In this document: in pieces, positions 12,647-51,512 of the stretch | How positions within the stretch are numbered: position 1 is the stretch's first letter | Layout of the letters: each line of letters begins with the position of its first letter | From: an uncultured virus (IMG/VR IMGVR_UViG_3300003324_000404) | Lineage: Duplodnaviria; Heunggongvirae; Uroviricota; Caudoviricetes | DNA: 64,000 bases | Reading direction: 5' to 3' (one strand) | Virus record (IMG/VR): IMGVR_UViG_3300003324_000404 | Position numbers and translations under genes: made by a program | The notes under the pieces: model-generated | Databases searched by the model: none | What the model was told of the DNA's origin: nothing | The model's input: only the letters and a program-made list of their open reading frames with translations

Positions 12647-12880
12647 TCACTCTCGTATCACGAGAATGTACTTGCCGTTGACGTTCTCTTCGACAATGTC
12701 ACGCATTGCCTGTTCCCGGTCCGCCTCCTGGTCAGCTTCACTCAATGAATCAGAAGTAATGATGATCCGATCGAGGTAGCCGGGGGTGTTGTAACCATGA
12801 GACATGTCCCAGATGAACCATTGATCCCACTCATCGAACGGATCGAAAGGATTATCTGATGTACTAAGCATCATAGCCAT
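12647..12880 (-). CDS. Conserved acidic small protein coupled to the RNAP-like gene
   Basis: TGATG overlap with the upstream gene. LSTSDNPFDPFDEWDQW..GYNT.GYL.RI. Confidence 0.75.
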   Translation of the reverse strand: MAMMLSTSDNPFDPFDEWDQWFIWDMSHGYNTPGYLDRIIITSDSLSEADQEADREQAMRDIVEENVNGKYILVIRE

Positions 12881-15690
12881 CAGGTATCTCCTCTCAGAGA
12901 GTTCTTCAGTGTGGTCAGTGATACTCCTAGAGCTTGAGCTACCTCAGCCTGTGTATGGCCAGCGGCCAGCATGGACTGTGCCCTCTGAAGATTCTCTCCA
13001 CCCATCAGCGTTGTTTGCTTGGGGGTGGCCAACTTCTTCACAGTTTCTAGGTCTGCATTGTCTAGGATCGTCTTCAGTTTGCTTGGGCTAATAGCCCGGG
13101 CTTGAATGGCCTGCCATTCTTGAGGGGTGATGACAATCTGATCTTTGCCAGCATTTGTCCTCAGCCTTGCTTGCTGAAGGGCCTGGAACTTGACTCTCTT
13201 GAGCTGCGATGCATCCATGTCAGGATTGTCTGCCCGCTTCTGCGACAATGTAGTATTGGCGTAGATCTGAGCTTGACGTTCCAAAGGTCTGTTCCGGATG
13301 GCCTGGTTGAGCTTGGCCGTAAGGGACTTAACCTCTGCGTCATATGCACGGGCAGCAGAAGGCAAAGCTTTGTCCTGCTTGGTGTTGACAAGTTCCTTCC
13401 TTGCCATGTTTGCCAATGCCTTCATCCGATTGCTGTGTTCGGCATAGACAGCCTCAATGGTTGTACCTGGTTTGTCCTTAGACCCACCAGATGTCAACAC
13501 AAAGGCGTCATCTTCCATTTCCAGCTTCTTGCGCGGCTGAGTGGGGAATCGTATCTTGCCCGTTCTGGGATCGACAAACTCCTCACCCTTAGGCACAAGG
13601 ATCTTCTTTCCTGTGACAGGATCGATGCCTCGTTGCTTCACAGCTCTAGCGTTACGATCAACAGACCCTGCTCGAGAGATTAGCGTCGATGCGCCACCTG
13701 CTGGGCCTGTTTCCTTGGGCTGGTACTTCTGTTGCAAAGCCCTAATGCCGTTCTGAATCTCTGATTCCTTGTAATCCAAGTGATGCTTCTCGGCATCGAT
13801 GACAACCATGGAGTGCTTGACTGCACGAGCAAGCTCGTCGTTGCTAGCACCACGAATCGTCATATCAGTGATCAGGTTTGACACCTTGCCCATGTGCTGC
13901 TGTTTGCCCGAAGGAGAAGGCTTCTTTGGCGTACCATCTGGCTTAACGCCATAATCAACCTTCTGAGCCTTGGCATCCCATCTTCCACCATCGATGGTTT
14001 TCATACCATCGTAAGGCGGGTATTCCCTTTGCGGCTCAAAGTGCTTCAACTCTTCCAGAGAGGGAGAGTTCTTGATAGTTGTGCCAGGACGCTGAGGAAT
14101 GACAATGACAGAGTCACCGTCGAAGTCAGCACCAGACAACTTTGCTGCCACTTTGGGATTGATACCAATAGCGTCAGGCGGATGATCGCCAAATGCCTCT
14201 CTTGCGGGGCGATGCCTGTTGTTGACAGTCAGCTCTGGAATCTCGAAGGTACCACCGTGGGGGTATCGGATGAGGACCACACGGTCGCCGTTTTTGTACG
14301 TCGGCGCGTAGACCTCCGTCTCTTTCATCGTTGGGATGGGGAGGATGACTCGAGACGCCTGGCCCGGAAGAGCTGCTGCTTTGAGATGAACAGCCGAGGA
14401 ATCCGCGCCATCCGCAAAGGACTCGAGAAGCTTCACTCGGACTGCCGGATTGGTCAGACTCATGATCTCATCGAGACCTTCTCTTGCTTCGTCATATGTA
14501 GCTTGAAGTTGACGACGAGCAAGTGTAGGAGCCTGCTTTGAGAGGAACTGAGACGACAAAGTCCTAGACCAAGTCTCCCAATCGCCCTCTTCATTGAGCT
14601 TGTTCATCACAGAAGTGACTTTGCCGGTTTTCTCGTCAAGAACCTGCCCATTCGGCTTGATCACCGCACCAAACGGGTTGTCCATATCGACGGTTCCGTC
14701 GTCCTTCTTCTTGAGCTCCTTCATGGCATCGAGTTTGCTACCACCAGGGCTCTTGTTGGTGTTGAACTGAAGATCTACGCCCTTCGGCATATCCGGTTTG
14801 TAGACCGCCATGCCTTTGAGGTAGTGGGTTCCGTCGACCATGATCCGGACTTGAGCATAGTGCGAGGCCCCGAGCGAAACATCCTTGACGCCGGGCCTGA
14901 CATAGATGACTCCATCCGCAAGGCTGCCTCCCTGATCGGCGTAAATGATGCCGATCCGTCTCGAAGAGATTGAGAGAGGCGGTTTAAGGCCAAGGATAGT
15001 TCTTCCATTGTCTTTGGAGAACTTTCCCAAAGCGTCAAGCTGCTGAATCTTGTCTTTGTTGGCATTGAGCTCCTTGTAGGTCGTTCCAGGAGGCGCAAGA
15101 ACTCGGATCGTGGTCTTGTTTCCGGGTGCGGTGCCCAATTGGTCGACCTGCACCTTGATGACCTCGTAGCCCTTCTCTCGAAGAACCGCTACAGCCGCCT
15201 TGAGGCGAGATTCAGCGATTCCGAGATGCTGTTCTACACCAGTGCCGATGTCAATGAAGCGCTTTGACGCAACACCCTCTTCCAACATCCTCGAGATGTT
15301 GTGGAGAGCATCAATCTTTGCGCGAGCATCGTCGGCAAGCAACGAGCGAACAGTTGACTCTTTCGTCTTCGTGCCGAACATCTTCTCGGCGATGGCCGTG
15401 TGAGACCACCCCTTGTCGCGAAGCTTCTGAGCCATGTGAATCTGTTGCTGCTTCTGCTGAGCCTTGGCGATAGTGCGAGCCGCCCGGTATTCAGTAGTGC
15501 TGATTCCGACCATTTTGCAGGCCTCTGTGATGGACATGTTGCCCTCGGCCTTGATCTTGTCGAAATACTCCAAGAAAGCTCGGTTGCGAGCGTTCTCAGT
15601 ACTACCAGAGCCCCAAGGGTAGCGACCTGACCTACGAAGGATGCCGTAGTGAGCCAGGTAGTTGTCCTTCTCCATGAGCTCGCTCACCAC
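12880..15690 (-). CDS. Single-chain two-barrel (DPBB) RNA polymerase-like protein with terminal HTH domains
   Basis: DGVIYV, QVR..YLKGM, RYP and LSGADFDGD motifs (DFDGD at 14113-14127). HTH-like segments at both ends. Confidence 0.8.
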   Translation of the reverse strand: MVSELMEKDNYLAHYGILRRSGRYPWGSGSTENARNRAFLEYFDKIKAEGNMSITEACKMVGISTTEYRAARTIAKAQQKQQQIHMAQKLRDKGWSHTAIAEKMFGTKTKESTVRSLLADDARAKIDALHNISRMLEEGVASKRFIDIGTGVEQHLGIAESRLKAAVAVLREKGYEVIKVQVDQLGTAPGNKTTIRVLAPPGTTYKELNANKDKIQQLDALGKFSKDNGRTILGLKPPLSISSRRIGIIYADQGGSLADGVIYVRPGVKDVSLGASHYAQVRIMVDGTHYLKGMAVYKPDMPKGVDLQFNTNKSPGGSKLDAMKELKKKDDGTVDMDNPFGAVIKPNGQVLDEKTGKVTSVMNKLNEEGDWETWSRTLSSQFLSKQAPTLARRQLQATYDEAREGLDEIMSLTNPAVRVKLLESFADGADSSAVHLKAAALPGQASRVILPIPTMKETEVYAPTYKNGDRVVLIRYPHGGTFEIPELTVNNRHRPAREAFGDHPPDAIGINPKVAAKLSGADFDGDSVIVIPQRPGTTIKNSPSLEELKHFEPQREYPPYDGMKTIDGGRWDAKAQKVDYGVKPDGTPKKPSPSGKQQHMGKVSNLITDMTIRGASNDELARAVKHSMVVIDAEKHHLDYKESEIQNGIRALQQKYQPKETGPAGGASTLISRAGSVDRNARAVKQRGIDPVTGKKILVPKGEEFVDPRTGKIRFPTQPRKKLEMEDDAFVLTSGGSKDKPGTTIEAVYAEHSNRMKALANMARKELVNTKQDKALPSAARAYDAEVKSLTAKLNQAIRNRPLERQAQIYANTTLSQKRADNPDMDASQLKRVKFQALQQARLRTNAGKDQIVITPQEWQAIQARAISPSKLKTILDNADLETVKKLATPKQTTLMGGENLQRAQSMLAAGHTQAEVAQALGVSLTTLKNSLRGDT

Positions 15691-41465: not shown

Positions 41466-42801
41466 CTAGCTCATCTCAAGAATGTACGACTCCATCTGGA
41501 ACCACAGCTCCACTTCTCGCTGATCTTCTTGAGGATGCTGAAGCGGGAACAACCCGCCGTTTCCGTCGTAGCTGTACTGCCTCCAGACCAACCTCTCAAT
41601 GATCTCTTCCACGCGGCCTGCGTGGTATCGTCTGTCGTTAAATCGTGTAAGGCCCAAGTTCCCGATCAGATGCCAGAACCACTCGCCCACCTCTCCTTCA
41701 GCCGTGAAAGAGAGATGGCGAGCGACTCCAATTAGCATCTCGAGTACCGAACACCCCAACTCCAACCAATGTTGGGTCGGATGGAGCATCGGTCCTGAAT
41801 GTAGAAACTCTTTTCGGAGAGCAATGCCGTCCGCACAACGATTGTCATCGTTTGGAACTAGCATCACGAACTCTCTCTCGAAGAGATGCTTCAACAAGCG
41901 GTTGTGTTCGACTCCCTGTTCTTGAGGCCCTACCTGTTCTTTCAGCCACTCCAGGTAGAGGGCGTCAAGTTGTTCAGTCATCGTTCAGGCGGAACTTCCT
42001 TGGTTGTGAGTGCTTGATGTGCGGCTCAGTGTCGTCGAACCCCATGACTTCATCGGCGTACTTACCGGTTGATCGCGTTACGCAGAGATCGAACGGCGGA
42101 TCGACCGTCTCGTTCCGGATGTAAATCACATGCTCATCTTCTGATCCGTAGCCGAAACGAAGAAGGTTGTCCTCGCCGACCACTCGGTTGACGTCTTGGA
42201 TGGGGTTGTACTCCTCCTGGTCGTCGACCAGAACGGAATCACCCTCGTACCAAGTGAACGCTCTCTGCTCGTGATCCGGCTCGTTCTCGTAGTACTCGAC
42301 CTTGGTGATGATGTAGGGCTCCGAAGGATCTCGATCTGCCAAGAGCGCAGACAGGACCTCTTCGCCAGGAGGCTGGTACTCCGCGAAGGTGTTTCGAACC
42401 GTCACTTCACGCTTCTCAGTGACTTCCATCTCCTCCACAGGAGCAACGTAGGTGCCCATGGCCTGCATAGCCTTGGTCATGATGCGCTCCTGGGCTACCT
42501 CAGACAATTCATCCCAGGTGCCAGGAGGTGCCTCCTGACTTTCGTCGACCAAAGGCACCATTTCGGTACCATCATTCTCAGTCTTCTCCTCAGAGATAAC
42601 CAATGGCGACCTGTGATAGAGCTTCTGGTAGTAGATCCGAGCTTCGGCGATCTCCTCGTCCGCGATTGCTCGGAACTTCTTCTCTAGTACCTTGAGGGCC
42701 ACCAAATATCCGGCTCCTGCTCCTAGCGCCGCGGCAACCGTCAGCGCAGAAGGAACAAGAAGCTTGACATTGATGGTCTCCATCTTCACGAGGGACTTCA
42801 T
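41466..42801 (-). CDS. Two conserved hypothetical proteins (41974-42801 and 41466-41981)
   Basis: DDNRCADG..SVLEML..GGLFPL..ELWFQM. EPYIITK.EY..RFG..YIRN. Coupled to the polymerase gene. Confidence 0.7.
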
Positions 42802-43676
42802 CGGTTCATCAAGCCATCGTCGAGCATGTGGTAAACGAGCCCGGCGACGTTGAAGTCGAGCATGAGCGCCCGCTGCGAGTTGTAGACTTCGGTGAACTTG
42901 ATTTCCACGAAGTCGTCACTATTGTCGGAGGGGATGATCCATCCCACGAGCTGCCCGTGCTGCGTCACCGGAAGATCGAACTGCCGATAGACATCATTCA
43001 AGAACAAATATCCATCGGCGCGAAGCTTGTCCGTGAGATGCTGCTCGGTGATCTTGATGAGACTGACGTTGTACTCGTGACTGGGCTGGAAGACACTACT
43101 GCGCTCGTCCCAGATCACGGCGTATGGACCCATCTCGGTGGGTCTCGACGCCTGGACCTTCTTGTGTCCCTTGTCGGTCTCCTCGATCAGCTCAATGGGA
43201 GTCGAAGCATGGTAAAGATCCTTCTCCCTGGCCTCCCCGACCTCCTTGCGAACTCGAGCACGATATCCATCCAGAAACTGCTGGAGTGAGACGTATGCTC
43301 CGGTCAGGGCAGCGTTTCGCTGAGTGAGCTGACGATGGGACTTGGTGAGGCAGTAGATCGAAACTGCACCAACAGCGATCGCCGGCGCATAGAGCTTGGT
43401 CACCTCCAGCGCGCCGTTCACCATGATGTGGGCCCTCTGCTGACGAGCTTCCTCGTGAGCCATGCCCCTACGAGATTCGACCACGTCGACGTCGATGAGG
43501 TCCTTCTTCATGTGATCCACAACGGGCTGCGACTTGATCGTGGCACGGCAAGCCAGCACGGTAGCCGTGACGGCACCAGTGACGCCGGCGACGAAGAGAA
43601 TCGTCGGCGAGTTCTTCTGAGTCTTGAGGACGGCCCGGCCTACTGCTCGACTAACCGTCTTCGGAACGTACTTCAT
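42798..43676 (-). CDS. DUF6353-like membrane-anchored protein
   Basis: NSPTIL..G..A.RAT..KLYAPA..RNAAL..YR.RV..GYLFLNDVY..GW..LDFNV.G. Confidence 0.7.
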   Translation of the reverse strand: MKYVPKTVSRAVGRAVLKTQKNSPTILFVAGVTGAVTATVLACRATIKSQPVVDHMKKDLIDVDVVESRRGMAHEEARQQRAHIMVNGALEVTKLYAPAIAVGAVSIYCLTKSHRQLTQRNAALTGAYVSLQQFLDGYRARVRKEVGEAREKDLYHASTPIELIEETDKGHKKVQASRPTEMGPYAVIWDERSSVFQPSHEYNVSLIKITEQHLTDKLRADGYLFLNDVYRQFDLPVTQHGQLVGWIIPSDNSDDFVEIKFTEVYNSQRALMLDFNVAGLVYHMLDDGLMNR

Positions 43677-46553: not shown

Positions 46554-47315
46554 TCAGAAATCCGGCACCGGGTCCTTCGTGAAGTCGATCAACGTCACCG
46601 CAGTTCCGTTATCGAGCAGCACCGGCGTGAGCACCAGATCACACTGAGTTCCCGATCGCCACCCGAGGATGTTCCCGATGCTCGTGTTCTCGAGTCCGAG
46701 CTCGTCGTAAAACGTGTTGAGGGACGTTCCACGTTGATTGTTGGCCTCGAAATTGACGAAATTCATGGCCCTCTTGACCTCCTCCTGTGTTGACAGGAAG
46801 ACCTTGTTGGTCGTGGCGTCCTTGAACCATGACTTCCCCTCCGGAGTGATGTATCCGGCGGGCAGATCGCTCTCCTTGATCTTCTTCTTGGCGATGTCGT
46901 GGTTGATCTCGTCCATCTTCTTGAGCCCAAGCTGCTCGGCAGCCTTGTCGCGGAACTCATCGAAGTCTCCGGAGAGAACTCCGTATGCTGCGGCCAGTGC
47001 GGCGAGCCGCCGAGCCTGAACTCGGTTCGCAGCCACGATGCAGACGACCGTCATTACCCCGGTCGTTGCAGCAGGCACGTAGTACTTCCACGTCTTCTCG
47101 ATCACGGCCTTGCGGGTGAACTCGAATGTCTGGTTTCCGCTCTCGACCTTGGCGACGATCTCTTCGTGCTGGATCTGTCGTGCGGCCTTCCATGTTGCCT
47201 TGACGGTGAGGTAGGTGGTGACGCCGATCCCGGCAACACCCAGAACCGTGAGAATCTGTGGCGATTCCTTGGCTACGAACTTCCCCACGTCCTTGGTGAT
47301 GTGCTTGAGATTCAC
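46554..47315 (-). CDS. DUF6353-like protein (paralog of 42798-43676)
   Basis: ESPQILT..G..KAT..KYYVPA..RLAALAAAY..SLN.FY..LGL..LGW. GTG start behind GAGG. Confidence 0.7.
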   Translation of the reverse strand: MNLKHITKDVGKFVAKESPQILTVLGVAGIGVTTYLTVKATWKAARQIQHEEIVAKVESGNQTFEFTRKAVIEKTWKYYVPAATTGVMTVVCIVAANRVQARRLAALAAAYGVLSGDFDEFRDKAAEQLGLKKMDEINHDIAKKKIKESDLPAGYITPEGKSWFKDATTNKVFLSTQEEVKRAMNFVNFEANNQRGTSLNTFYDELGLENTSIGNILGWRSGTQCDLVLTPVLLDNGTAVTLIDFTKDPVPDF

Positions 47316-48169
47316 TGGTAATCCTCTTCTTCTCTGAAGTCCTGCACAAACTGGCGAACCTTGGGGTAGGCCAGCGTTCCGATCGCGATCCACTGAAGGA
47401 TCTCATTGATGAGTTCAATCACCTTCTTGCCTTTCGCATCTCCCTGACAAATATCCAGATGAGCCAAACCGGGAAGCCGCCAAAGATGGCGGCTGTGATC
47501 AAGCACATGAAGACGTCGAACAGAAACGCGAGACACCCATACTGCTTGGGTGCTTGCTCGATGAAGATGTACTTGGTCATCAGAGATCAGCCACCGCTTG
47601 CTTGAACGAGTTGATTCGGCCTTCGACCGTCTGGACAGTGTCGGCAACCATCGTCTGGGCTCGCTTGGCTCCGACAAGGATGACCACAAGCGTGGTCGTG
47701 GAAACTACCAAGCTGGTAGTTGCGATGATGAGAGTTGCGAGTTGCATCATGACTCCTGTGGAATTGAGAACTTCTTGACATACCAGGCATACGAAGCGTC
47801 GTACGTGCGCTTCGCCAGAGTTCCGTCCGGGTAACGGGCGAGGAACTTTACAAGAGGCGAGCTCGGAATTGTTCGCCCGGCTTCGTCTTCCTGGAATCGA
47901 GGCTCGATTTCCACTCGAACTACCTCGCACCACCGGTTGCACTCCAAGATGCGCTTCCGGTCGTACTTGTTGTCGAACCCGTCAATGTCGGCCTTCATGA
48001 GGGACGACTCAACTAGCACAATCATTCCCGGCCTGAGCTCCGTTCCGTCGAACAACAGGTCGTCGTCCTCGGGGTTCATGACGTAATCGCGATCAACAAA
48101 GAGGGACTGCATGTCTTGCTCGTTCATGTTGGGATCTCCTTAGCTCTTCTAGCATGGACAGAAATATAA

Positions 48170-48523
48170 AGGAGCTGCGCGGCCCCTTATAGGGTGGCAG
48201 GGTAGACTACTACCTTCTCCTATTATAGGCCAAGATTTTTTTGCGAGGTCTCAGCCAAAAGTTAAGAGAAGCTGATTTTCTCATTTCAATTAGCTGGGTC
48301 AGCGCTCCAGTGTCACCTGGTTGCATACCATTCAATCCCACAATCGAGTGGGAACTAATACTTCTCATTAGAGGCGTTGCAAATTCTGCGAAAATTGGAG
48401 AGAAGAGGTACAACGCCCAACTAAAACGTTGTCGTTAAGTGGCTGTTTGGTCCGTGCCACCACGCCGCCCAGGATTCGAACCTGGACATTAGTGTGTCGG
48501 CATCCCTTACGGGATCTCTTCTC
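48170..48523 (-). ncRNA. Three tandem promoter-driven structured small RNAs
   Basis: Units 48400-48523, 48266-48366 and 48170-48221. Each begins right after a promoter hexamer and is closed by a 5'/3' stem. Confidence 0.65.
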
Positions 48524-48559
48524 ATAAGACGCCGTGTTTTTCTCGCGATTGCGCAGAAA

Positions 48560-51512
48560 ACTACACCCCAGGTTTCAGGGTGTAGTTGTCGGCCTCAGCG
48601 AAGTGTGGCGTAGGTCTTCTTCGTCGACTTGACGGCTCCTCGGATGACGAACATGACGATCTTGTACGGGATGTACATGACAGCCATGAAAGCCAGGAAG
48701 AGGAAGGTGTTTCTCATCAGTTCGAAGATGTCCACGTGTTTTCCTTTCGTTTGGGGTCATTATAGGCCTAGAAATTCCCGCGAAGCCATACACAAAAGGA
48801 GAGCCTAGGTAGGCTCTCCCGGTCTCAGCTATTGAGTTCTTCCCAGTATTCGGGGCTGTAGAACTCGATCGGGTCGATGCCCTTCTCCTCCAAGAACGCG
48901 TAAAACGCTTTCACGTTGCTCTGTTGAAGAGCGATGGCGCCGGCGGCGACCATTGTCATCAGGTAAGCAACCTTGTTTCGCTTGACGTGGTTCTTGAATG
49001 AGACGGCAGTCTGTACGATGCGGTCCATTTCTTCTCCTTTGTTGGGGTCATTATAGGGCCAGAATATCCCGCGACAAAAGACCTAGAGCCCGTGTATGGG
49101 CCCTAGGGTCTTGATCAGCTTTCCGCAGGTTGTTCCTTCTTCCACTGTTCGCGCTTCTTGCGCTCTCGGTAAAGCTCGTATGACTCCTTTGCCCAGAACA
49201 CGACGAGCAGCATGGCTGTCAGCTTGAGCTGCCAGATGAAATTCGCCTTGGTTCGAGGGTGGAGGTAGTCGGGGGTACGAGCGTTCCAAGCGGTTTCGAG
49301 CTTCTTGAACGGGTGGTACATTGGGGTCTCCTTTGTTGGGTCTGTCATCATAGGCCTTGAAATATCTGCGAAAAGCAAGAGCCCTTGCGGGCTCTGCCTT
49401 TAGGCCTCGTCGAAACGAAGTCCGGGGATAAGTGATCGATGCCACTTCAGCTTGACAATCCACAGTGTTTCCGGCATTTCTGCTGGTACCGGATCTCTCA
49501 GAAGCATCCACTCAATGAGTTGGTGCCTCAGGTTCCATCGACGGTAGTAAACCGTGCCGAATTCTGTGGTGGTGTCAAGGAAGAACGGCTTTCGCTTAAA
49601 CATGCGGTCTCCTTTGTTTGGGGTCATTATAGGCATGGAATATCCGGCGAAAAGGAGAAGCATTGCTGCTTCTCCTAGGGATTATGACTTGTACTTCCGG
49701 TTGTAGATGTTGTCGGCGGTCAGCCACGGGTGCTTCAAAGACACGTCCGGCTCGTTCCACCCAAACTTGGCACACTCGACGAAGTAGTCGATGTAGTTCA
49801 GGCAGTAGCCGAGGTAGACGAGTCCGGCACCGATGGCGAGCTTCTTCAGCATTGTTTCTCCTTCTGTTGGGGTCTTTCACTATAGACCCAGTAAATATCG
49901 CGAAAGAAGAGAGGCCTTGCGGCCTCTCTAGTCTACTCCTTGATTTCGTAGACGTTGTATTTCAGAACATTTCCGTAAGGCATCGGCTGGCGATAGAGCT
50001 CGATTCCGTACTTTCCGGGTTCGCGAATCTGGCCCGATTCGATGGCGGCGTTCATGGCTTCTGCATAAAGCGTCAGCGATGGATCGCCTCCGTCATGGAT
50101 GGGCAGAGGCGGAGGGAAAGTGGCGAGCTCCACCACATAGCAATGATGTCCTTCGATGTCTTGAAACATAGGGTCTCCTAGTGTTGGGGTCATTATAGGC
50201 CTGGAATATCCGGCGAAAAGGAGAGCCTTTGCAGGCTCTCCAGGGTCAGGCCTCTCGGAACACGAGACCGGGGAGCACTACGCGACGGCGTCGTTCGAGT
50301 GTGACGATCCAGAAGCCATCGGGAAGGTCGTCAGGAATTCCCACATGCTTGAGATTCCACTGAATGTAGCGGTTTCTCAACGTGCGAACTTTGACGCTGT
50401 GATGGATTTCCGAACCGTCTTTGTCGACGTAATAGCCACGTCTTTGCATTTCGGTTTCCTTTCTTTGGGGTCATTATAGGCCATGAATATCCAGCGAAAA
50501 GCAGACCCAATGAAGGGTCTGCTTGGGGTCAACTCGTATATCCAAAGGAATGAGTGTCGATCATTTCCAGAGTTCTGTCTGTACGATCGGCGGGATGGAT
50601 GTAGGCATAAAGGCCGTATTGGGCATTGAGCTCGATAGCAGCTTTAACAGCGTCTTCGAGCGTCTCCCACTTGAGCCATGTGTCTGCAGGTCCACCGAGG
50701 CCGGTTGACGTAACAACCATGTTACTCAGTGTGATAATGAACATGCGGGTCTCCTTGGGTCTTATGAGTCATTATAGGCCTAGAATATCCCGCGAAAAGG
50801 AGAGCCTGTGTCGGCTCTCCTGGGTTCTAGACCCTCGCGTTTACGAGGTCCATGTACTTCTCGGTCAGCTCAGTGAGGTTGTCATCGAAGTAGTTGACCA
50901 TGGCGGCGTGATCGGAATCGTCATCAAGCGGGTCGTCAAGAGCTGCCTGCTTCATCGCGTAGTAGTACGCGATTCTGCGAGCAACGTCGTCGAGTTCGTC
51001 GTCGGTGCGAGCGATCACCATCTCCAGGTACTCTTCGGTGATGGTCACGAGGTTGTCGATAGACATGCTATCTCCTTTTGTTGGGGTCATTATAGGCCTG
51101 GTAAGTATTGCGAGCACAAAAATATAGAGCCCCTGTAGATTGTGCTACAGGGGTCCTATATCGTCCTTCTGACGGTCCTCAGCGGAGTTTTCCGGCGAAG
51201 TTTAGGGCTCTCGAGCCGATCACGTGTCCGTGTTCGTATGCGACGATGACGAGGATTCCGAGGAGGTTCGCTCCTGCGATGACCCAGGTGTCGGGATTGA
51301 CAGCTCTCTTGGAGTGCTTCTCCTTGAGCTTGTACAATCTCTCCAGCCGGTTCAGGCAGGTGGCGTACGCCTCAGAATCCCCATCCATCGAGCGCATGTC
51401 GTCTTCGAGCGTCTTGATCGTGAGATCGAGGCTCTGAGCTTCATCCGAGACTTTGCTCAGCAATGGGGTCTCCTTTCATTGGGATTCATTATAGGCCATG
51501 AATCCCTTGCGA
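48560..51512 (-). other. Right array of ten promoter-gene-terminator cassettes
   Basis: Promoters at 48759, 49050, 49347, 49626, 49879, 50192, 50473, 50771, 51089 and 51488. Genes at 48595-48735, 48825-49028, 49115-49321, 49400-49603, 49682-49852, 49933-50169, 50246-50449, 50529-50744, 50827-51066 and 51179-51463. Confidence 0.9.

Follow-up and report, generated by a model that had tools for sequence, protein, structure and literature searches.

The stretch of 64,000 nucleotides analysed here, from an uncultured virus (IMG/VR IMGVR_UViG_3300003324_000404) and hereafter termed the window, holds on its minus strand three consecutive promoter-led RNAs, RNA1, RNA2 and RNA3, the first of which represents a structured RNA family outside Rfam. 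The evidence strongly supports RNA1, and moderately supports RNA3, as stand-alone structured small-RNA genes in a phage cassette format, and RNA2 is probably a further stand-alone structured small-RNA gene, judging by its single sequence. The conserved core of RNA1 is not tRNA-like, but consists of a 10-nt bulge that kisses a 9-nt hairpin loop. Sequence and gene context suggest that the three RNAs act early and in trans as protein-binding decoys, a reading to which we assign a probability of about one half.

The window phage is a siphophage of the group that includes ReqiPepy6 and ReqiPoco6, the Gordonia DJ, Streptomyces BI and Arthrobacter AU/AW phages and Lactococcus phage 1706. Its DUF6353 protein matched 246 phage records, the top one at about 39% identity. 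Two DUF6353 paralogues are encoded at 46554-47393 and 42798-43676 on the minus strand, and in several phages the operon with the first paralogue lies directly downstream of the small-RNA cluster. Two IMG/VR contigs share the small-RNA region with the window at 99.9-100% identity. The first (L001, 1924-1954) joins window positions 53024-51071 to 50204 onward and thereby skips three cassettes, or about 870 bases, at a promoter repeat, which reflects either cassette loss or an assembly difference; the second (L002) matches the window. The phage also encodes a two-barrel RNA polymerase of 936 amino acids (12880-15690, minus strand) with DFDGD at residue 522. The polymerase is a member of phrog_4291, a proposed RNA polymerase family, and has the DxDGD loop in common with it; the main text of the preprint on the family contains no occurrence of “promoter” or “non-coding” (10.1101/842583).

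A repeat of the form TCGC-N11-GGCCTATAAT, followed by a purine, occurs in 22 minus-strand copies and in no plus-strand copy in the window, compared to a mean of 0.3 in shuffled sequences, and all copies stand at non-structural genes. Nineteen of the 22 copies are followed by a ribosome-binding site (RBS) and an open reading frame of 46-122 amino acids, and the exceptions are the copies leading to 48523, 48366 and 48221, where RNA1, RNA2 and RNA3 begin directly after the repeat. The original prediction, according to which each RNA has its own promoter and follows the cassette format of the neighbouring protein genes without an RBS-led reading frame, is thus borne out; the short open reading frames that start inside RNA1 and RNA2 (2-41 codons) have no RBS. 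Promoter repeat 1 (48524-48548) carries three mismatches in its 10-base downstream element, repeat 2 is located at 48367-48391, and repeat 3 (48222-48246) is a perfect match and the last copy before the operon starting at 48127. Upstream, the terminator hairpin of a 46-amino acid cassette (48557-48587) insulates the RNA cluster, as far as its sequence indicates; this and all following window features are on the minus strand. Between 29384 and 27234, five more cassettes, each with promoter, RBS, small ORF and hairpin terminator, form a second array. Moreover, in the segment 16605-16545, downstream of the gene at 17120-16614 and ahead of the polymerase operon, a promoter copy precedes a short hairpin and a U-rich tract, both located before an RBS; the segment possibly represents a fourth tiny RNA or an attenuator.

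RNA1 comprises 124 nt (48400-48523) and scores 94.8 bits with the covariance model R1, the training set of which includes it. Its ends are closed by the 8-bp stem P1 (48523-48516/48407-48400), followed by P2 (48515-48511/48506-48502) and by P3 (48501-48498/48467-48464 plus the pair 48496-48468), which carries a bulged A at 48497. Between P3 and P4 (48485-48481/48473-48469) lies the 10-nt bulge (48486-48495), of which positions 48494-48489 form one strand of the kissing helix. The other strand is provided by the 9-nt loop (48417-48425) of P6 (48432-48426/48416-48410), where 48418-48419 and 48421-48424 pair with the bulge and 48420 is looped out; both assignments stem from covariation. P4 is capped by a canonical T-loop (48474-48480), an optional feature of the family, and the loop (48444-48455) of P5 (48460-48456/48443-48439) contains a GG at 48453-48452 that is the probable T-loop partner, similar to G18-G19 of tRNA, as judged from compensatory cases in L282, L148 and L024. 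The folding z-score of RNA1 is -4.0. The stems that had been named originally in the three RNAs are all present at their positions on the minus strand; helix P3 with its bulged A and the bulge-loop kissing helix had not been described.

RNA1-like sequences were found in L004/L005, Sporto and ReqiPoco6 among protein-anchored loci and annotated records, and a scan for the promoter and first bases only returned 103 viral stretches. In 100 loci (97 from the promoter scan and three records) model R1 gave 23 matches, 21 of them distinct, and two scans with a core pattern returned at least 118 and at least 120 stretches. Filtering the core matches for an upstream promoter yielded at least 113 distinct sequences or 84 representatives with less than 88% identity; of the latter, L285 and L306 were discarded as matches due to chance, leaving 82. 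Accordingly, the family has at least about 110 distinct promoter-led copies, distributed over actinophages and phages or prophages of gut Clostridia. Among 11 cultured phages five match R1 (ReqiPoco6, Sporto and Qui from the training set, ReqiPepy6 and Secretariat from outside it), two more (Gordon and Shiba) carry an RNA1 variant, and four are without RNA1: no R1 match occurs in the whole genomes of Rima and Kenosha, and Zeina and DizzyRudy revealed no RNA1 in 6-7 kb stretches with R1 or genome-wide with the pattern. The cultured phage records examined hold no annotation for RNA1-type RNAs; the RNA1 homologue of Qui (L011, 15998-16123) overlaps at its 3′ end with the start annotated for gene 80, a gene call that may be too long. 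Against cultured phages, BLASTN returned nothing beyond pieces of the promoter, T-arms of tRNAs and a weak match in Sporto, and gut-type RNA1 had no match there. A strict pattern had eight matches in 185,579 species genomes, seven of them of the gut type. The three matches tested lie on the same contig as a phrog_4291 gene at a distance of 41-63 kb, and therefore these matches are probably prophages. R1 matches were also obtained in two of 151 genomes of the family to which G002 belongs.

This distribution bears on the notion that RNA1 serves a phage protein as cofactor or regulator, e.g., the phage RNA polymerase or a primase-polymerase. A single-copy RNA restricted to one phage lineage and its prophages in two host phyla would fit such a role, but RNA1 was not found in the whole genomes of Rima and Kenosha within the same phage group and resides among variable accessory cassettes, and we regard this explanation as quite unlikely.

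The original prediction had proposed a search for compensatory changes, and RNA1 supplied them in abundance. The window, L007 and L087 were aligned with 70 of the 82 representatives among the matches listed (73 rows). From this alignment P3, P4 and P6 emerged in RNAalifold without guidance, and with P5 and the six-pair kissing helix included, 24 of the 26 proposed pairs show changes on both sides. Of the alignment cells 90.2% are paired; shuffles reach 70.6% and slid controls no more than 44%. In the set found without the core pattern and fitted to the nested structure with the kissing pairs left out of the fitting, again 24 of 26 pairs covary and 92.4% of the cells are paired. The covariation in P3, P4, P5, P6 and the kissing helix exceeds all 500 shuffles and all slid controls; within the kissing helix, five of six pairs covary in each alignment and each of the six in at least one. 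For the central kissing pair, 95 promoter-led sequences among the matches listed comprise 65 G-C, 26 U-A, four G-A and no U-C combinations, counted as sequences rather than independent events, and the link is weaker in 64 matches without a detected promoter, which are a mix of chance matches and true members. The divergent RNA1 version of Gordon and Shiba retains the kissing helix, in which an A-U pair of one phage corresponds to G-C in the other, and window RNA1 shares a G-C to C-G swap at 48496/48468 with L026 and L082. P2 and P5 are absent from many members and the P4 loops vary. Hardly any variation across host phyla is seen at the unpaired core bases (the bulged A and the final G of the loop), a constancy partly imposed by the search pattern. 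The pairing of P3 in 84 of 84 rows among the matches listed is likewise partly due to how the set was built, with one row (L004) mis-parsed, and the case for P3 rests on the covariation figures given above.

The terminal helix yields information on transcription. It starts between -3 and +1 nt around the first base after TATAAT in 68 of the 82 members among the matches listed, and four or more bases downstream in six of them. Furthermore, the 5′ and 3′ ends of the same RNA1 pair over 6.6 bp on average, compared to 5.4 ± 0.1 bp (maximum 5.7 in 500 swaps) for swapped ends. Since the helix starts there and an RNA's own ends pair better than swapped ones, the first bases after TATAAT are transcribed. 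If a housekeeping sigma factor recognised TATAAT as its -10 element, transcription would begin approximately 6-8 nt further downstream, which favours the phage two-barrel polymerase as the probable reader of the promoter repeats. No sigma-70 consensus sites were found at the locus, and the promoters of RNA1-3 are not such sites. At the other end, a U-tailed terminal stem of at least 5 bp is present in RNA2, RNA3 and one of the 19 mRNA cassettes; RNA1 fails the U-tail filter, and its weak U-tract extends into the next promoter. Early expression, as originally suggested, would be consistent with the position of the genes.

The T-loop had also led to the suggestion of a tRNA mimic, which holds for part of the molecule: the window copy has the canonical T-loop and a probable GG partner, but lacks an anticodon arm and a CCA end. 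Among the matches listed, a 5-bp stem with a 7-nt loop occurs in 54 of 84 members (45 of these 54 with U54 and A58) and is missing in 30, and the canonical T-loop is found in 12 of 84; gut versions possess a long AU-rich loop. Fourteen loops among the matches listed start with UU. Twelve of them have C56, accompanied by GG in the P5 loop of eight and not of the other four, and the two loops with A or G at position 56 carry GU or GC instead of GG. An elbow-type pair hence fits 10 of these 14 loops among the matches listed, including the two compensatory cases, which amount to few events; L024 repeats the A/U case. Owing to the GG/C56 matches and the compensatory changes, an elbow-like contact is likely in the T-loop sub-family including the window copy, and the T-loop with its GG elbow is an optional add-on rather than the core of RNA1. 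RNA1 might act as a mimic of the tRNA elbow that diverts tRNA-cleaving or tRNA-sensing proteins, and its canonical T-loop, whose 5-bp stem stacks on an acceptor-like helix of 5 bp, the co-occurring GG and the anticodon-less tRNAs encoded by sister cassettes speak in favour of this. Yet, the rarity of the canonical loop in the family, the AU-rich gut loops and the missing anticodon arm and CCA render the proposal unlikely, and the elbow may be only a stabilising clamp. RNA1 as a genuine tRNA was rejected: the covariation-derived fold has no anticodon arm or free acceptor end, and neither ARAGORN nor the Rfam tRNA model scores it.

The Rfam search that had been proposed originally matched RNA1-3 to no family. 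Rfam 15 at gathering score produced no match in the window and, in 20 homologue loci, only two tRNA matches, both on neighbouring genes; scans by E value gave sub-threshold matches only, and no riboswitch or ribozyme matched at E values up to 5-10. Riboswitch aptamers and small ribozymes are generally built as a junction locked by a kissing helix and furnished with invariant unpaired bases, and RNA1 shares this build. A role of RNA1 as a ribozyme, or as an aptamer for small molecules that would soak up an immune signal or alarmone, nevertheless appears decidedly unlikely, given that no Rfam riboswitch or ribozyme model recognises it. The literature searched, which left out most subscription journals, did not describe RNA1-3, and the searchable part of the PMC10690425 and PMC8040213 supplements, the largest files of which were outside the search, did not contain the RNA1 motif; the family may be an anonymous candidate in these supplements.

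A Y-RNA mimic had been considered as well, and this part of the original prediction failed. As far as the sections of PMC4201824 considered here describe YrlA (RF02553), it resembles RNA1 in its length of about 110-125 nt, its closed ends, a T-loop with a downstream GG loop and its presence in some actinophages, but RNA1 has no Ro60 neighbour, nests its T-arm inside P3, treats the T-loop as optional and contains a kissing core that is absent from YrlA as described. Model RF02553, at E values up to 1, did not match RNA1 in five phage records; its only match reached 13 bits (cut-off 69) on a tRNA-like gene of ReqiPoco6, and control genomes likewise stayed below the cut-off. No Ro60/TROVE gene occurs within about 4 kb in five genomes or records, one of them a complete relative (controls: two of 14), nor among the 33 window ORFs scanned. 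The T-arm upstream of a GG-bearing loop and a CGAA-N-G run in most members, which resembles part of the motif GNCGAAN0-1G in those sections of PMC4201824, would fit a Y RNA bound by Ro60/Rsr. The run starts with C rather than G, reads CUAA instead of CGAA in the window copy and covaries with the P6 loop, and together with the missing YrlA match and TROVE gene this makes a Y RNA extremely improbable.

RNA2 (101 nt, 48266-48366) has a 6-bp terminal stem and a U-rich tail, a z-score of -2.8 and a better fold than all 200 shuffles. Matches were confined to this phage in a 22-base exact scan of viral contigs, and nhmmer found no other match in 377 loci. RNA2 is missing from the closest relatives; L004 and L267 pass straight from RNA1 to RNA3, and L174, L082 and L024 harbour other small RNAs at the place of RNA2; the differing cassettes among close relatives indicate gain and loss of RNA cassettes at promoter boundaries. 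Some motifs of RNA2, we presume, resemble a CRISPR repeat; they matched no CRISPR array in plasmids and no listed RNA anti-CRISPR (Racr), and four single matches but no array were obtained in 301 genomes of the phylum of G002, actinobacterial chromosomes lying outside this search. Like a Racr, RNA2 is a solitary unit with its own promoter.

RNA3 (52 nt, 48170-48221) forms a three-way junction with a 5-bp terminal stem and a U-rich tail. With a z-score of -1.35, and 20 of 200 shuffles folding as well, its structure rests on covariation rather than on energy, and this support is modest: in three distinct versions (window, L004/L005 and L267) three of 17 pairs are compensatory, and 50 of 51 cells are paired, a value reached by 14 of 500 shuffles. 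Apart from the copy of RNA3, no promoter copy occurs between 48221 and 46450, and the operon from 48127 must therefore be read through RNA3, which may double as an operon leader. A cis-acting role on downstream genes, be it in processing, in attenuation or as a leader, is accordingly most plausible for RNA3, where a local terminator-like hairpin is possible, and the weak U-tract of RNA1 would agree with it. For the cluster as a whole it is very unlikely, since a fresh promoter follows both RNA1 and RNA2, the RNA3 homologue of L267 is succeeded by another promoter-led small RNA rather than an ORF, and the hairpin is not kept in RNA3 homologues.

About 100 further candidate small RNAs of the cassette format are present in related phages. 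When all loci were screened mechanically for promoter-led, stem-closed, U-tailed units, 210 were returned, including matches from the listed RNA1 loci: 82 are RNA1-type by pattern, seven have a tRNA-type T-arm (one being RNA1), and 103 others are without RBS-ATG, some of which are clearly due to chance. The 103 include tRNA shapes with a replaced anticodon loop and RNAs with two or three internal repeats. In 54 RNA1 loci a second small RNA lies nearby in 10, a count from a strict filter that is probably low. The promoter-led tRNA shapes of ReqiPoco6 (L007, 12694-12779), ReqiPepy6 (L376, from 2199) and Kenosha (L009, from 7352) have extended acceptor stems, no CCA and GCAA in place of the anticodon loop, and are annotated as tRNA-OTHER or not at all. 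Tandem-motif, stem-closed RNAs with two or three copies (L011 14592-14751, L015 826-968, L287 422-527, L106 470-549, L031 368-459, L182 426-508) are suggestive of multivalent protein decoys. Other tRNA shapes have an odd anticodon arm (L154 1134-1211, L157 1134-1229, L196 156-237, L017 569-646, L122 702-779, L076 826-912), and several of these adjoin an RNA1 homologue in gut phages. The RNA1 scaffold also occurs with a different bulge and loop (L026 843-984, L135 834-948, L054 826-916), in L026 next to a standard RNA1. Finally, Gordon (L372, 5529-5850) carries three unannotated small-RNA cassettes before its first DUF6353-sized gene, i.e., at the same genomic position as in the window; one holds a T-arm RNA, one an RNA1 variant and the last a further RNA.

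Since RNA1 is accessory, closed and compact, has conserved unpaired bases and lacks an antisense target, it is best read as a protein ligand. Antisense action on phage genes was rejected, as the longest matches of RNA1-3 in the phage (10-11 nt) are no longer than in shuffles. In the mechanism we favour, the three RNAs would be independent small-RNA genes in an accessory cassette array. The phage polymerase would initiate on the base that directly follows the TATAAT-like element or immediately ahead of it. The purine-rich first bases pair with the far end, as covariation shows, and the helix and U-tract would terminate transcription and shield both ends. In RNA1, covariation further shows that the two arms of the junction are locked by the 6-bp bulge-loop kissing helix, with the T-loop/GG elbow probably providing a second clamp in the window copy. 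The compact RNA would then act early and in trans, where, as a decoy or ligand, it would titrate a host protein conserved in both Actinomycetota and Bacillota. This protein would most likely be one of defence or surveillance, which is favoured by the variable-cassette setting and the decoy-like neighbours. RNA2 and RNA3 would be other exchangeable RNAs of the same format with partners of their own.

The decoy against defence proteins put forward originally remains plausible on these grounds: the RNAs have their own promoter without an RBS-led frame, RNA1 is single-copy and patchy, neighbouring cassettes differ between close relatives, and anticodon-less tRNAs and short tandem repeats are forms typical of decoys. 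A precedent exists in the Racrs, stand-alone promoter-led phage RNAs that act in trans as decoys by copying CRISPR repeats; in the material from PMC10651486 considered here they resemble RNA1-3 as stand-alone, promoter-led small RNAs among accessory genes, but differ from the multi-helix, pseudoknotted RNA1 in that they copy CRISPR repeats. The strict pattern, with its eight matches in the species genomes, revealed no host RNA mimicked by RNA1, and an anti-defence function was assigned to none of seven cassette proteins scanned. Moreover, a cross-phylum target could equally be a phage protein. More tentatively, the phage lineage might maintain an exchangeable arsenal of RNA-only effectors, with RNA1 as a conserved founder that neutralises a cross-phylum immune protein or binds an immune signal; the polymerase promoter and the self-closing terminal stem would then turn any insert into a stable small RNA.

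Adenovirus VA RNAs are likewise tandem, separately promoted, stem-closed and U-terminated, contain a pseudoknotted core and decoy a host sensor, but they are eukaryotic and transcribed by Pol III, and only an analogy is drawn here, without claiming homology. RNAC and RNAD of phage T4 are small phage RNAs, too, yet they are classed as late RNAs, are not described as exchangeable cassettes with a promoter per gene in the parts of PMC9697503 considered, and have no Rfam or sequence link to RNA1-3 that we saw. The abundant early non-coding RNA of cluster A mycobacteriophages, according to the relevant part of PMC5712189, is an actinophage non-coding RNA like RNA1-3 and comes from an early promoter, but it is about 500 nt long, has one promoter at the genome end and belongs to an unrelated phage group.

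Stand-alone phage small RNAs are thus already known as a kind, while the RNA1 fold and family are uncatalogued and, in the cultured records examined, unannotated, and yet are kept across phages of two bacterial phyla. RNA-only counter-defence by phages is known from few cases; with its roughly 100 candidate small RNAs of one format, this lineage would supply many new ones, each of which would point to a host target. By locating where the phage polymerase probably starts, the covarying terminal stems permit a direct biochemical promoter test, and the cultured carriers Sporto, Qui, Secretariat and ReqiPepy6 make the decoy reading testable.
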